Program-made: the position numbers and the translations under genes
The notes under the pieces: model-generated
Told to the model about the DNA's origin: nothing
The model's input: the letters and a program-made list of their open reading frames with translations, nothing else
Databases searched by the model: none
Shown: one piece after another, positions 7,771-13,750 of the stretch
How the letters are laid out: every line of letters begins with the position of its first letter
Numbering within the stretch: position 1 is the stretch's first letter
DNA from: a bacterium
Lineage (GTDB): Bacteria; UBA8248
Length of the DNA: 64,000 nucleotides
Reading direction: 5' to 3'
Assembly (NCBI GenBank): GCA_965213625.1
Contig: CBDBZU010000004.1
Span: 3,264,001 to 3,328,000 of the forward strand

Positions 7771-9114
7771 TCAGCCGGCCCCTCCCACCGCATGCTCGAA
7801 AACCATCATCGGCTCAAAATCCGCAAGCTTAATTTGAGGCAACGAAACGCCCGCATACGCTCCCGCCGCATGGAATTTCTCGAGCAGCTCCGTATCACTC
7901 AGCGGCTTTCCCGGCATCCCGCGGGCGGCGCCGCAGAACCCGGCCGCGGTGCGGCCATCGCTCAGGGTCAGCGTGAGGCGGATGCTTTCGGGATATTTCC
8001 CGCGCATCTCCTCGGTGGAAAGGTCCATCGCGCGCTTTACACTCACCCGCGCCATGAGGGCCTCCATCTCCGGGCTGACCCCGGCTCCGGGTTCGAGATC
8101 CTCAAACCGGACCTTGCCGTTAAGCGCGGCGCAGGCCAGCGCATATGGCAGGCTGAACTGCATCTCCTGCGGGGTGGCCGGATTCGGAAAGACGAGACTC
8201 CCGTAGACGAGCTCCGGTACTTCGGCGTGTATCCCGGCCACCTCATCAGCACTTGCGCCGAGTTCCGCCATGAGTCCGTTCATCTGTTCGATGGCCGAAA
8301 GCGCTGCCGAGCAGACCGGATTCGTCTTGAACAAGAGGCCCGGGTCGCACAGGCGCCAGCGCAGGCCGATGGTTTTGAGTTCGGACTCGACGGCTTCGCC
8401 CCGGTTCAGCAGCTTCAGGAAACCCCGGTTGTCCTCGAACGCGGCTTCCGGTCCTGTAAGCCCGGCCTGCGCAGCCCGGGCGAACGTAACGGCCCGACGC
8501 GCGGTCTCGCCGACGAGCATCGGCTTGGCGTCCGTACCGAGCACGGCCTTTCCCCCGCCGGAAGCGGCTGCCGCCAGGCCGATAGCGCTCGTCATCGCGT
8601 CCTCATCGAGCCCCAGCAGGCATCCGGCGGCGACGGTCGCGCCCGTGAGGCCGAAGGTGATCGTGCTCCACCAGCCATGGAAGTAGTGGTCGTGTGTGCA
8701 AAGATCGGCGAGGACGTACGCCACCTCGGAACCCGCGACGAAGGCGCGGCGAAGCGAATCAGCGCCCGTTTCGAGTTCCTGCGCCAGGGCCATGGCGGCG
8801 GGCAGCACCACCGCCGAGCCGTGCATGATCCCAGTGTAGGAGGTATCGTCGAAATCCCAGACGTGCGCCGCCATTCCGTTGATGAGCGCCGCGGCTTCCG
8901 GGTCCGCTCTCCCGCCGGTCGCCAGCGTCGCCTTCCCTTCCCCGCGCGTAGTCACTGCAGCCAGGGCGCGCACGGATGGATGCGCGCCCCCCGCGAGCAT
9001 GACGCCCAGGGTGTCGAGCATGGCCCTGTTTGCAACCGTCCTGACTGCGGAATCAACCCGTTCCAGACCGCAGGCGAACCTCGCGAACCGCCGGGCTATT
9101 GTGGGTGTTTTCAT
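7771..9114 (-). CDS. MmgE/PrpD family protein (copy 2, divergent)
   Basis: AALINGMAAHVWDFDDT, MQFSLPY; starts 21 bp after the grdB stop. Confidence 0.9.
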   Translation of the reverse strand: MKTPTIARRFARFACGLERVDSAVRTVANRAMLDTLGVMLAGGAHPSVRALAAVTTRGEGKATLATGGRADPEAAALINGMAAHVWDFDDTSYTGIMHGSAVVLPAAMALAQELETGADSLRRAFVAGSEVAYVLADLCTHDHYFHGWWSTITFGLTGATVAAGCLLGLDEDAMTSAIGLAAAASGGGKAVLGTDAKPMLVGETARRAVTFARAAQAGLTGPEAAFEDNRGFLKLLNRGEAVESELKTIGLRWRLCDPGLLFKTNPVCSAALSAIEQMNGLMAELGASADEVAGIHAEVPELVYGSLVFPNPATPQEMQFSLPYALACAALNGKVRFEDLEPGAGVSPEMEALMARVSVKRAMDLSTEEMRGKYPESIRLTLTLSDGRTAAGFCGAARGMPGKPLSDTELLEKFHAAGAYAGVSLPQIKLADFEPMMVFEHAVGGAG

Positions 9115-9135
9115 GTGGTGACGACACCCACCCCT

Positions 9136-10452
9136 CTAGTACTCGAACACCGTGGGGCCGTCCACTTTTTCGGTCAGCGCTGAAGCGGCGGCGCGTGCTG
9201 CGCCCAGGCGCCATTCACGCTCGGCCTCGGGCGTCCGGGAGGGGTCGCCGAATGGATGATGAAAATGCCCGGCGCGGTTGTTGACGATGCGGTTGACCCC
9301 GATGTCACGCGCCACGTCCGGCAGGCATGTGACGATGACGGTGGGGATGCCCTCCCGCTCGAGCGCTCTCGCCAGCGCAGCCCCGCTGCGCGTGCCGGTG
9401 CCTCACGTTGCGGGGAGCACGACGCCCTCCACCCCGGTCTTTTTGAGTTCCGCGGCCCAGGCGCGGCCGATGCCGTCCATCTCGGCGAAGGCGCCGCCGT
9501 TCCCGCAGGTGCTGTGGAAATCATCGTGGAGCTCGGCGATCTCGCCCTCCTCCGCAAGCCGCCGGAAGGCGTCCACGGCGAGCATGCGGTCCGGCTCCTC
9601 GTTCACGAACACGGTGTTGAAGCCCCCATGAATCGAGATGAACGTGCCGCCCGGCAGGGCGTCTTTCCCCTTAAAGGAGTACGTGGCCCAGTTCTCATTT
9701 CTCGAGCCGGCGAAGCGGTCCGGGTTGCCGGGGGGCACCATGCCGCCTTCGGATACGATGGCGATGCGCGCTTTTTTAAGATCGGCGATCGCCTCGGGCG
9801 GCGCAATCTCTTCCAGAACGGGAACGTCGAGTTCCGTCTCGTAGGGCTCGCCCTTGATTTTTCGTAAAACCATGTCGACGGCGCGCTGCGAAGTCGGTAG
9901 TTCGGCGACTTCGTTGTAGCGGACCCCCCGAGGCAGGTATCCCTCCTCGGCCGCATTGCCGATCTCCTCGCCCCGGGCAAGCTTGAGTCCAAGGCGGGCG
10001 GCGGCTTCCAGGGCTTCCTCCATCCCGACGGCCGAATCTGCGGCGGGTACGGTGTGGACACCGGTACCGGCAGCGGGAAAGCCCGGATTCTCGGGGTGCA
10101 TGGCAGTGACGACGGGAACGCTCGCCTCATGCGCTGCGCGGCATACGGCGGCGCAGGCCAGCCCGAAGCGCCCGGCGTTGAAAGCGGGCCCGGCGAGAAC
10201 GAGATCAGGAGAATATTCGAGAATCCTAGCGAGAGCCTCTGCGGCGCAGTCTTCCTCGTTTTCGGCGATAAGGCCGTCCCCCGCAAAGACGGTGCCGACC
10301 ACTTCGGCGTCTTCCCCCAGAATTTTATCGAGCAAAACGCCGGGGCCAACCGGGCCTGTCTGCGCAGATACAGGATGATCGCTCTTCTCCTCGCCCCCGA
10401 CGCCTGCAAAGAACTGGTTCAAGTAGTGAACGACCCGAAGTTTACCGCTCAT
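9136..10452 (-). CDS. grdB: Glycine/sarcosine/betaine reductase-family selenoprotein B (438 aa, Sec350)
   Basis: VVHYLNQFFAGVGGEEK, AGPAFNAGRFG; in-frame TGA at 9403-9405 continues as GTGTRSGAALARALEREGIPTV..NRIV..HPFGDP..PTVFEY, matching the GrdB C-terminus. Substrate subfamily uncertain. Confidence 0.93.
9375..9391 (-). promoter_or_regulatory. SECIS-like hairpin of grdB
   Basis: GCGCAGC-GGG-GCTGCGC stem-loop separated from the UGA by 11 nt. Confidence 0.7.
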
Positions 10453-11842: not shown

Positions 11843-12295
11843 CTATCCGGCCGTGCGCATCGAGGCCAGGTCGCTTTCTATCTGCTCCAGATCGAGCACC
11901 ATTTCCATCATGAGGAGCTTTTCGGCGTACAGATTCTCTGGAACCTGGGCGCGCACCTTCTCTTCTAGAATGTGAAAAACGGGGAGTCCCAACGAGACTC
12001 CCGCCAGGGGCCCGGCCCAGCTGGGGTCCCCGGTGGTCAGCGTTTCGGCTGCGAGCCGAAGGCCTTCACCGGGCATTCCCAACACCACCATCAGGTTCTC
12101 CGACCCCACTTCATCGGCAATCGATTTGATGGCGGCCTGGTTCTCCAGGTCCATGGCGCCAGCGGAGGTTCAGACGAAACACTCCGTCTTCTGGAACACG
12201 ACCTCCGCACCCGCCGCCTCAATACACTCGGCAATCAGCGGACCGGGTACGCCGTCGCGCTCACCCAGCGCGATCACCTTCTTGCCTTTGAACAT
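11843..12295 (-). CDS. grdA: Glycine/sarcosine/betaine reductase selenoprotein A (150 aa, Sec42)
   Basis: [27 protein letters not shown](12170-12172)[31 protein letters not shown]; downstream CCTGG-AGAA-CCAGG hairpin. Confidence 0.95.
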
Positions 12296-12328
12296 GTGTG
12301 TCCTCCACTTGCCTGAAAAACGAACGAA

Positions 12329-13750
12329 TCACGCTTCTATCAGCACCGAAGCCCCGTCGGCCTGCTGGGACATCCGGCCTAAAAACAGACTCCCTTTGGC
12401 GAGGATCATTGTACTCGCAAGGCTCCCCGCCCGCATCCGCTCCAGCGCGTGTCCGAGAAAGGGAACGCCTGCGGGAATATGCCCCTGCGTCGGCGCGAAT
12501 CCGGGCATCCCGTGCGCCTCGATGAAAGCCGGAATCTCCTCGCGGGCGATCTCCCCGCCCATCACCGCCATGGCGGCCAGCATCTTGTAATTCGTAGCCG
12601 CCACGTCTCCCGCCCCCGCGGGCAGCATGACTTCTGGATTATGGAGTTCGACGGCGTACTTATCGACGCTGGTCAGCTTGCGCCCGGCGCGGGCCAGCGG
12701 GTCGCGCACCATAGCCTCCGCCAGCCCTTGCGGCGTGGATGGCCTGCCCGCCGCGTGGCGTCCGGCTATCTCGAGATTCACGCGAGGGCCGTCCCCTGAA
12801 TTTTTCGTGAGAAAAAACGCGACCCCACCCAGTACGTCTTCCAGTACGGGCATTCCCTTTTCCAGATGGTAGTACGCCTTCATCCCGAGCTTCGCCATCG
12901 AACCGCCCCCGACGACGACGGCGTTCTCGACGACACCCGCCTGAATAAGCGCCGCCGCATGCACCAGAGCGTACACCGGCGCCGCGCAGAAAGACTTCAC
13001 GTCCACGCCGGCCGCATTGGCGCAGCCCGCCATCTCGGCGATCGCCTTTGCAAGATTGCCGCCGCCGCGATTGTAGCGATCTCCAATAGCTTCCTCCGAA
13101 CAACTGATCACGTACTCTACCTGTTCGGGCGCGATGCCCACCCCCACGAGCAACCGCCTGAGCGCATAAGCGCCGCTCGCCTTGGCCGAGAGGTTTTCCA
13201 ACAATATTCGGGCGTCCAGGGATTCATCGGCGTCATGATCGCGGCGTACGCACCCGATCATGTCCCCGTCCTGAAACAGCGGCAGGGCCTCTCCTCGCTC
13301 GATGCGTTCAATAATGTCTTCTTGTTTGTAATCCTTCGGAGGATTTTCTTTTTCGAGAAGCGCGTCGGCGGATTCAGAACCCACGCCGCGCGGCCCATCA
13401 CGCTCCTTATCGAGCATTATCAACCCGAACTGATCCGCCGCTTCGAGCAAGGCATAGAAAGAATCCTGCGGGAGGATTTCCCCGAATTGGCTCTCAAGCG
13501 AAGCGCCTGCGGGGGAGTTCTCGTACCACGGAGTTGGAATTTCGTTCAGATTTTCGGGCTGCAGATTGCCGATGAACGCCTGGTTCGGCGGGTAGCCGAC
13601 CACTTCATCAAAAGAGCGCAGGTCGTTGAACGAGTCGCCCGGCGCCTGATTGTTCCTGAAAGCCTCGCGCCAGGGCTTCGAGCCGTAGCGAACCAGATCT
13701 GGAACATGCACGAGAACGTTCGCAGCAGCACGCAGGTACGCCATCATCAC
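12329..13750 (-). CDS. grdC: Glycine reductase complex component C beta subunit (FabH-like)
   Basis: HVPDLVRYGSKP, YPPNQAFIGN, CSEEAIGDRYNRGGGNLAKAIAE, FCAAP, GFAPTQGHIP, GSLFLGRM. Confidence 0.93.
   Translation of the reverse strand: MMMAYLRAAANVLVHVPDLVRYGSKPWREAFRNNQAPGDSFNDLRSFDEVVGYPPNQAFIGNLQPENLNEIPTPWYENSPAGASLESQFGEILPQDSFYALLEAADQFGLIMLDKERDGPRGVGSESADALLEKENPPKDYKQEDIIERIERGEALPLFQDGDMIGCVRRDHDADESLDARILLENLSAKASGAYALRRLLVGVGIAPEQVEYVISCSEEAIGDRYNRGGGNLAKAIAEMAGCANAAGVDVKSFCAAPVYALVHAAALIQAGVVENAVVVGGGSMAKLGMKAYYHLEKGMPVLEDVLGGVAFFLTKNSGDGPRVNLEIAGRHAAGRPSTPQGLAEAMVRDPLARAGRKLTSVDKYAVELHNPEVMLPAGAGDVAATNYKMLAAMAVMGGEIAREEIPAFIEAHGMPGFAPTQGHIPAGVPFLGHALERMRAGSLASTMILAKGSLFLGRMSQQADGASVLIEA

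Follow-up and report, generated by a model that had tools for sequence, protein, structure and literature searches.

A module of four genes, grdC-grdA-grdE-grdB, was analysed on a 64-kb stretch of a bacterial chromosome (positions 3,264,001 to 3,328,000 of contig CBDBZU010000004.1, assembly GCA_965213625.1), referred to below as the window. By analogy with the known glycine reductases, the module probably encodes a working selenium-dependent reductase of the Grd type. It would belong to a separate, widespread lineage that is independent of GrdD, and would act on a substrate X-CH2-COO- without a Schiff base, the acetyl group leaving from Cys255 of GrdC. The textbook glycine reductase is a fermentative, ATP-yielding system of strict anaerobes, with a pyruvoyl group, a UxxCxxC selenoprotein and an acetyl-phosphate-forming GrdC/GrdD pair. 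The assembly is 4.15 Mb in size and rated 96.6% complete, and the names of the closest database proteins suggest an uncultured bacterium of the Nitrospinota/Tectimicrobiota type. Homologues were taken from 80 related loci, which were mapped with six window proteins.

Six genes in the same direction on the minus strand span 7771..14627, in the order short-chain dehydrogenase/reductase (SDR), grdC-like, grdA, grdE-like, grdB-like and MmgE/PrpD, with intergenic gaps of 91, 33, 11, 95 and 21 bp. This agrees with the preliminary description of the stretch, which had reported the co-oriented grd genes, two of them with selenocysteine (Sec), the MmgE/PrpD gene 21 bp after grdB and the SDR upstream. 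The grdC-like gene (12329..13750, 473 amino acids) codes for a thiolase/KAS-III-like beta subunit of protein C and scored 587 bits on NF040746 (cut-off 450). The grdA gene (11843..12295, 150 amino acids) was identified as selenoprotein A by its equivalog score (NF040748, 207 bits, cut-off 130; PF04723, 206 bits), its CxxU motif and an in-frame Sec codon, the TGA at 12172..12170 in the motif C-F-V-U. The grdE-like gene (10548..11831, 427 amino acids) represents the alpha-type subunit of protein B (PF09338, 355 bits), and the grdB-like gene (9136..10452, 438 amino acids) selenoprotein B, with an in-frame TGA at 9405..9403 in the motif U-G-T-G-T-R-S-G. All four grd genes are single-copy in the whole genome.

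The predicted selenocysteine positions are conserved. The sequence CFVU was present in all 46 GrdA proteins, and a TGA was found at the homologous position in 79/79 GrdB-like frames. The genome also carries a complete Sec machinery, consisting of SelA, SelB, SelD and tRNA-Sec. In grdB, a hairpin resembling a selenocysteine insertion sequence (7 bp with a loop of 3 nucleotides, 9375..9391, minus strand) begins 14 nucleotides past the U of the UGA. It is kept in 16 sequences from several phyla according to RNAalifold, with two of the seven pairs compensatory and the other five invariant, and a weak consensus structure follows the UGA of grdA. The hairpins after the two UGA codons fold no better than shuffled sequences (z -0.9 and -0.4). 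Elsewhere in the same genome, three short PrdB/GrdB-like genes (754651-755040, 1299266-1299661 and 1105001-1105303; L003, L004 and L005) each contain one in-frame TGA with the frame open beyond it; two of them have a Cys three residues past the TGA, and they look like further selenoproteins. One in-frame TGA each was also found in a thioredoxin-like frame (977807-978094, L017, 44 bits) and in SelD (1518852-1519814, L010), so the organism seems to have a sizeable selenoproteome.

The GrdB-like protein is a member of the GrdB/PrdB superfamily (TIGR01918, 413.6 bits with a cut-off of 65; PF07355, 397 bits; Sec at the conserved place), but it lies below the thresholds of the specific families. On the GrdB equivalog TIGR01917 it reached 394.9 bits versus a cut-off of 602.2, where the positive controls for glycine GrdB (L059, L068, L070, L078 and L079) scored 659-712 bits. 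Its scores against sarcosine GrdF (412 vs 800 bits) and betaine GrdH (355 vs 775 bits) were likewise too low, as were those of the GrdE-like protein against sarcosine GrdG (258 vs 780 bits) and fluoroacetate FarE (127 vs 675 bits). D-proline reductase shares the superfamily and the combination of a Sec protein with a partner subunit. Its cut-offs were missed as well (PrdB 81.3 vs 300 bits, PrdA 25.8 vs 700 bits), and the Prd enzyme differs in using a pyruvoyl group and in having no need of GrdA and GrdC. No relative of either the GrdB-like or the GrdE-like protein was found by sequence in the PDB.

In its active site, the window GrdB-like protein reads PATUGTGTRSG versus TSTUGTCTRCG in the canonical protein of L079 (699 bits on TIGR01917), and both cysteines of UxxCxxC are gone. 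The motif U-G-[TS]-G-T-R-S-G was recovered in 33 frames, that of the window and those of 32 other loci. Canonical GrdB of the Bacillota has U-G-T-C-T-R-C-G, including five proteins above the glycine-GrdB cut-off and one above the GrdF cut-off. The glycine-specific GrdB motif of Nobu et al. (PMC9751293) was matched by none of the 33 cysteine-free proteins and by 18 of the 48 other GrdB; the window protein retains one of its six sub-motifs. The published GrdF motif was dropped as a test, since the sole control of GrdF grade (L088, 820 bits) failed it too.

A comparable change affects the partner subunit. At the self-cleavage site, where canonical GrdE and GrdG have S-G-N-C-V, the window protein reads GANYK versus SGNCV in GrdE, with Tyr245 in the Cys column. 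The pyruvoyl group of Clostridium difficile GrdE is described as derived from the Cys at residue 242 (PMC9908766). As Tyr245 replaces this pyruvoyl-forming Cys, the GrdE-like protein is, from its sequence, probably not a self-cleaving proprotein. Like the window, each of the 14 loci L020-L033 has Tyr in the cleavage column; elsewhere the column holds Cys in GrdE and GrdG, Phe in the GrdI reference (L116) and Trp in three FarE references above cut-off. At E<=1e-30, a profile of the GrdE clade collected 429 clusters (50% identity); of the best 150, 73 have Tyr in this column, 17 Phe, eight Cys, five Ser and three Thr.

Two described systems resemble the module in this respect. In the E-type subunit GrdI of betaine reductase (reference L116), too, an aromatic residue stands at the site in place of the processing Cys, which implies a substrate independent of a Schiff base. 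The second is fluoroacetate reductase FarE/FarB of the Synergistota (PMC10838667; L114 and L117): according to the account given there, FarB is without CxxC, and FarE, like GrdI, is without processing cysteines and is no proprotein. It is the only described relative with both losses and forms a precedent for a leaving group that is not an amine. In other respects it differs from the window system. FarB and FarE lie on long branches of their own, FarE does not recognise the window protein at its cut-off, and FarB has Ser-Ser-Arg-Cys/Gly where Gly-Thr-Arg-Ser is found here. Genes of the farC (radical-SAM) and farA (antiporter) kind are not conserved next to the module. The Far host is reported in the same paper to possess a standard GrdC/GrdD as well.

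The third hallmark, GrdD, was not detected. The best match to NF040747 in the window genome scored 20 bits versus a cut-off of 350, which is the level of PlsX in Escherichia coli and other controls, and a tblastn search of the window genome with a genuine Oribacterium GrdD gave no match. GrdX had no match in the genome with its hidden Markov model, a model that matched in no control genome yet does detect GrdX in two Bacillota loci. Within the 64-kb window, none of GrdD, GrdX, TrxA and TrxB was found; TrxB (363 bits) and TrxA (126 bits) are encoded elsewhere on the chromosome, so that their absence from the cluster is no peculiarity. Among 51 species genomes of the window's phylum, GrdD was above cut-off in none (best 35 vs 350 bits) and GrdC in 34 (36 at E<=1e-20). 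Five complete chromosomes from Desulfobaccales, Dehalococcoidia and the Entotheonella type with cysteine-free GrdB all contained GrdC (5/5) and GrdA (5/5), and GrdD was found in none of the five. GrdD directly follows GrdC in 19/19 loci of the Bacillota type with a full GrdC and in 0/21 loci of the other group.

In the phylum, a single genome of 51, G008, was found to contain acetate kinase, and it is also the only one with phosphotransacetylase; the window genome has neither. The search controls were positive in 9 and 10 of 14 genomes. Of the five genomes from other phyla, one (Desulfobaccales G051) carries acetate kinase. Protein C, made up of GrdC and GrdD, is presented in PMC9908766 as the former of acetyl phosphate. 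Judged by gene content, this acetyl-phosphate branch is missing here: neither the maker nor the textbook users of the compound are predicted to be encoded. The thioester was reportedly assigned to Cys359 of GrdD by Kohlstock et al. in 2001.

GrdC itself retains a candidate nucleophile. Cys255 is invariant in 40/40 GrdC and is the putative acetyl acceptor, as both hhalign and a profile search against solved structures pair it with the active-site Cys by which FabH accepts the acetyl group. GrdC shares with FabH/KAS III a thiolase-fold N-terminal half. The resemblance is weak, with only weak FabH and thiolase matches among solved structures and an hhalign probability of 80%; the catalytic Asn of FabH is unconserved in GrdC, and the equivalence of the His is uncertain. 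Five fixed differences separate the two kinds of GrdC: K25, Y226, K252, K291 and H370 in the 21 proteins from loci without GrdD versus T, N, R, N and Q in the 19 that are linked to GrdD, the latter being some 27 residues longer at the C-terminus. The signature recurs in three further genomes of lineages outside the defining set, one of the Dehalococcoidia and two of the Entotheonella type. It is also present in L100, whose genome was already counted, and position 25 falls outside the coverage in L101. Together with the Tyr and Gly/Ser motifs, the five residues provide simple markers for telling both kinds apart.

Separate clades were obtained in phylogenetic trees. In the GrdB tree, from which 26 near-duplicate loci had been removed to leave 52 rows, the 18 cysteine-free rows lie beyond a single branch with 99% support in the Shimodaira-Hasegawa-like approximate likelihood ratio test (SH-aLRT), with the glycine, sarcosine, betaine and fluoroacetate references on the opposite side. 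This split keeps 98% support with the motif columns taken out. In the GrdE tree, the 17 partner proteins and three others, whose GrdB is cut off or frameshifted, lie on one side of a 98% branch, and in the GrdC tree one 99% branch parts 14 rows from loci or genomes without GrdD from 19 rows followed by GrdD. Tandem GrdE-like pairs of two Dehalococcoidia loci (L065 and L087, about 8600-12600) form a clade of their own in the GrdE tree, and no GrdB-like gene was seen within 10 kb of them.

Several proposals of the preliminary description are upheld by these results. It had put forward a Grd-like system distinct from glycine, sarcosine and betaine reductase, with altered GrdB and GrdE active sites; the subunits missed every equivalog cut-off, their cysteines are lost at both sites, and GrdB, GrdE and GrdC fall in separate clades and not within characterised ones. 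The missing grdD was confirmed beyond the window, at the scale of the genome and of the phylum, and no standard copy sits elsewhere in the genome. The sel genes, which it had left to be sought in the remaining genome, were located. Its remark that trxA and trxB are lacking is correct for the window, but does not hold as a peculiarity of the system. The new substrate that it suggested is still conjectural.

Compared with the clostridial glycine reductase (reference L079, Oribacterium), the module thus shares GrdA with CxxU and Sec, a selenoprotein of the GrdB family with a partner of the GrdE family, the invariant Cys of GrdC, and thioredoxin with its reductase in the genome. It differs in the absence of GrdD and GrdX from the genome, in the loss of the UxxCxxC cysteines, in the Tyr in place of the pyruvoyl Cys, in its TIGR01917 score, in the gene order C-A-E-B, in the lack of acetate kinase and phosphotransacetylase, and in a haem-copper oxidase in the host (subunit I, 511 bits).

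Purifying selection was seen on each of the grd genes. Compared with three relatives, the whole-gene ratio of nonsynonymous to synonymous substitution rates (dN/dS) was 0.09-0.19 for all four (grdE 0.09-0.17). The regions downstream of the Sec codons were constrained too, with 0.05-0.25 for the 88 codons past the TGA of grdB and 0.21-0.38 for the 106-108 codons past that of grdA. The SDR was left out of this comparison, as the compared copies were non-orthologous. Presence of GrdE and GrdC was concordant in 48/51 genomes, the three exceptions being 67-88% complete. In two close relatives (L022:11270-13183 and L026:11282-13127) an insert of about 1.9 kb, with a DNA-methylase-like open reading frame (ORF) and a second one without Pfam match, was observed between grdE and grdB, the flanking grd frames being intact.

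A reaction sequence may be drawn up on the model of the known Grd mechanism (Andreesen 2004, as cited). The GrdE-like/GrdB-like pair would bind a substituted acetate X-CH2-COO-, of which the leaving group X should need no Schiff base, given that the pyruvoyl precursor Cys is absent. The Sec of GrdB would attack the alpha-carbon and expel X, after which the carboxymethyl group would move to the Sec of GrdA, where the CxxU motif is intact. Closure of a Se-S bond by the GrdA Cys would then place the C2 unit as a thioester on Cys255 of GrdC, and TrxA and TrxB would re-reduce GrdA. As GrdD, acetate kinase and phosphotransacetylase are absent, the product is most likely acetyl-CoA, formed through a reversed FabH-like half-reaction, or else free acetate, rather than acetyl phosphate for ATP synthesis. 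With a haem-copper oxidase in the host, the likely role of the system is carbon salvage or detoxification, not energy conservation by fermentation. Candidates for X are a quaternary ammonium or sulfonium group (betaine-like), a halide or a sulfonate.

A bolder form of this proposal is conceivable, although doubtful as it stands. In it, the module would represent a distinct class in mostly non-fermenting bacteria, many of them aerobes, in which the two selenoproteins strip a non-amine group (sulfonate, sulfonium, halide, tertiary or quaternary amine) off a substituted acetate and GrdC alone passes the C2 unit to CoA by means of its lineage-specific His370 and Lys residues.

The genes surrounding the module vary. 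Upstream of grdC lies the SDR-family oxidoreductase gene (13842..14627, minus strand; PF13561 and PF00106), and downstream of grdB the MmgE/PrpD-family gene (7771..9114, minus strand; PF03972 163 bits and PF19305 85 bits). The latter comes directly after grdB in three loci of the phylum (the window, L021 and L022), out of 11 whose downstream sequence extends for 1.5 kb or more; an SDR lies ahead of grdC in five of 12 (the window and L021-L024). Flanks in the rest of the phylum contain CoA-transferase subunits (L028 and L029), an M20 peptidase, a luciferase-like monooxygenase, a cyclase, an acyl-CoA dehydrogenase, a peroxiredoxin or a transketolase-like gene. In other phyla the gene content differs again according to Pfam, and L063 has a creatinase/M24 gene. 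When the 531 ORFs around 33 loci were clustered, the Grd genes were the only families in common. Conservation is limited to grdC-A-E-B, while the MmgE/PrpD and SDR genes are local neighbours specific to this species group and not conserved parts of the system. On this point the preliminary description, which had counted both among its parts, is not supported, and the genome contains many paralogues of each (11 MmgE/PrpD and more than 40 SDR). The kinship it had given for the MmgE/PrpD protein, with iminodisuccinate (IDS) epimerase and aconitate decarboxylase, proved accurate: the nearest solved relatives are Bacillus subtilis IRG1 (cis-aconitate decarboxylase) and IDS epimerase, of the same two-domain family (E about 1e-40). 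The window protein differs from these in having no specific assignment, with 35 bits versus an equivalog cut-off of 950 despite the presence of both Pfam domains. The flanking genes were also considered as a clue to the substrate and rejected, the hints being too lineage-specific to transfer.

A match to a sigma-70-like promoter (TTGACA, 18 nucleotides, TAGCAT) was noted at 14696..14725 on the minus strand, upstream of the SDR, by a consensus scan only (10/12 matches). It is a candidate start of a transcript from SDR to PrpD, no convincing terminator having been seen between the cluster genes. Co-transcription of the local cluster may be possible on this sequence evidence, and the promoter match carries no weight as to function. 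An Rfam scan of the whole window returned no family at its gathering score.

Further observations were made on related loci and on the window. In two Desulfobaccales loci (L038 and L039, about 4000-20600), a single GrdC-TrxA-GrdA set is shared between two GrdE/GrdB pairs; the cysteine-free motif is found in one of these and U-G-T-G-T-R-C in the other. They are accompanied by a corrinoid protein, a URO-D-type methyltransferase, a four-domain rhodanese, a molybdopterin oxidoreductase, a GntR regulator and SSF and DASS transporters, a context that suggests methylated or sulfur-containing substrates in that lineage. Five of the 11 MmgE/PrpD paralogues lie in the window, all on the minus strand (3111-4553, 7771-9114, 16545-17942, 52139-53512 and 53543-54904), two of them in tandem beside a gene of the PEP-mutase/isocitrate-lyase family (54915-55787) and one immediately following an isopropylmalate/homocitrate-synthase-like gene (18111-19664). 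Some 5.5 kb from the grd cluster lies a DDE transposase gene (DUF772, DDE_Tnp_1; 20143-21588, plus strand), and the G+C content of window positions 1-4000 is 46-47% versus about 60% across the remainder. At 33364-35919 (minus strand), a ring-opening amidohydrolase of the AtzD/TrzD type (404 bits) stands beside an amidohydrolase, with an amine-oxidase-like flavoprotein, a cyclase and two major facilitator superfamily transporters nearby, which may form a catabolic patch for s-triazine or barbiturate-type compounds. Two FAD-binding-4/FAD-oxidase genes and a CCG/4Fe-4S protein at 59197-63438 (minus strand) are arranged as in glycolate oxidase GlcDEF.

Among the other explanations, a known type of Grd reductase, ordinary betaine reductase (GrdHI-like) or another, that still makes acetyl phosphate, with GrdC or a housekeeping enzyme such as PlsX performing the GrdD step, seems improbable. 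The GrdE-like subunit resembles GrdI at the cleavage site, PlsX, a paralogue of GrdD, is encoded beside fabH, phosphate could be bound by the two additional fixed lysines and the histidine of GrdC from GrdD-less systems, and the GrdD-less G051 does have acetate kinase. Against this, the window GrdB is far below the GrdH cut-off and separated from the GrdH reference by a 98-99% branch, that reference retains the CxxC of UGTCTRCG which is lost here, and betaine reductase as described uses both GrdC and GrdD. Moreover, with acetate kinase and phosphotransacetylase absent from the window genome and from 50/51 genomes of the phylum, acetyl phosphate would have no obvious use. The six co-oriented genes could also be read as one catabolic operon, with the SDR and a PrpD-family enzyme (an epimerase, decarboxylase or dehydratase) supplying or using up the substrate, for example one of the iminodisuccinate type. 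The short gaps of 21 and 91 bp, the lack of a convincing internal terminator, the promoter-like site before the SDR, the solved relatives of the PrpD protein and purifying selection on its gene in L021 and L022 (dN/dS 0.21-0.26) all agree with this reading. It is nevertheless unlikely, because the neighbours recur in so few loci, in L021 with a gap of 640 bp before PrpD, because the other relatives have different flanks and share the Grd genes only, and because chance adjacency is to be expected with so many PrpD and SDR paralogues.

It was also considered that the substrate is no free small acetate derivative but a protein- or peptide-bound group, or that the module is a selenium redox or defence system of an aerobe in which GrdC is not an acetyl acceptor. 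The host is a likely aerobe in view of its haem-copper oxidase, no conserved transporter lies nearby, a peroxiredoxin gene is placed divergently upstream of grdC in L029, and the genome holds the three additional short PrdB-like selenoprotein genes. This possibility is rated distinctly unlikely: CxxU in GrdA and the nucleophilic Cys in GrdC are conserved as in the acetyl-forming system, the four genes co-occur across genomes, and X-CH2-COO- compounds and proline are the only substrates of family members characterised so far. Decay of a glycine reductase into an inactive remnant, which would account for the loss of GrdD and of the catalytic cysteines, for the absence of the module from some complete genomes of the same genus and for the insert that parts grdE from grdB in L022 and L026, is hardly tenable. 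The four frames are intact and constrained also past their Sec codons, the identical residue changes are fixed across several phyla, the costly Sec codon is kept in every GrdB-like frame, and Tyr, not Cys, prevails in the cleavage column among the best 150 representatives at 50% identity.

A GrdD-independent reductase thus remains the preferred explanation, and a number of points weigh against it. The module is missing from the complete same-genus genomes G023, G025, G033 and G034, which makes it a dispensable, accessory trait. No transporter or other gene hinting at a substrate was conserved beside it in the flanks examined, and the 21-bp spacing permits co-transcription of PrpD, so that a functional link is possible locally. 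The trees were quick IQ-TREE runs (LG+C20), unrooted and with SH-aLRT support only, and L116 was the sole betaine reference, its GrdH scoring 764 bits, under the cut-off of 775 that no sequence in the set exceeded. As to GrdC, hhalign sets the catalytic His of FabH at E368, two residues from H370, which leaves the register uncertain. Other users of acetyl phosphate may exist despite the lack of acetate kinase and phosphotransacetylase, and the sequence appears to fit acetyl-CoA, acetate and GrdC-catalysed phosphorolysis alike, the release route being pure inference.

A search of titles and abstracts in the literature outside subscription journals found none that describes a GrdD-less or cysteine-free Grd lineage. 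A 2026 review of selenoproteomes gives GrdB only with the UxxC motif (PMC13188914), and a 2026 study of Desulfobacterota treats the complex as one of five subunits (PMC12827605). Automatic annotation labels these genes “glycine reductase”, a label that would mislead reconstructions of the reductive glycine pathway or of Stickland fermentation. The three textbook hallmarks are gone, together with acetate kinase and phosphotransacetylase, yet selection maintains the genes in several phyla, and their hosts have genes for aerobic respiration. With Cys in eight and Tyr in 73 of the best 150 GrdE clusters, most of the nearby diversity of the family may carry out chemistry that has never been assayed. 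If the bolder form of the proposal is true, the module would constitute a selenium-dependent route to acetyl-CoA that involves neither an acetyl-phosphate intermediate nor substrate-level phosphorylation.

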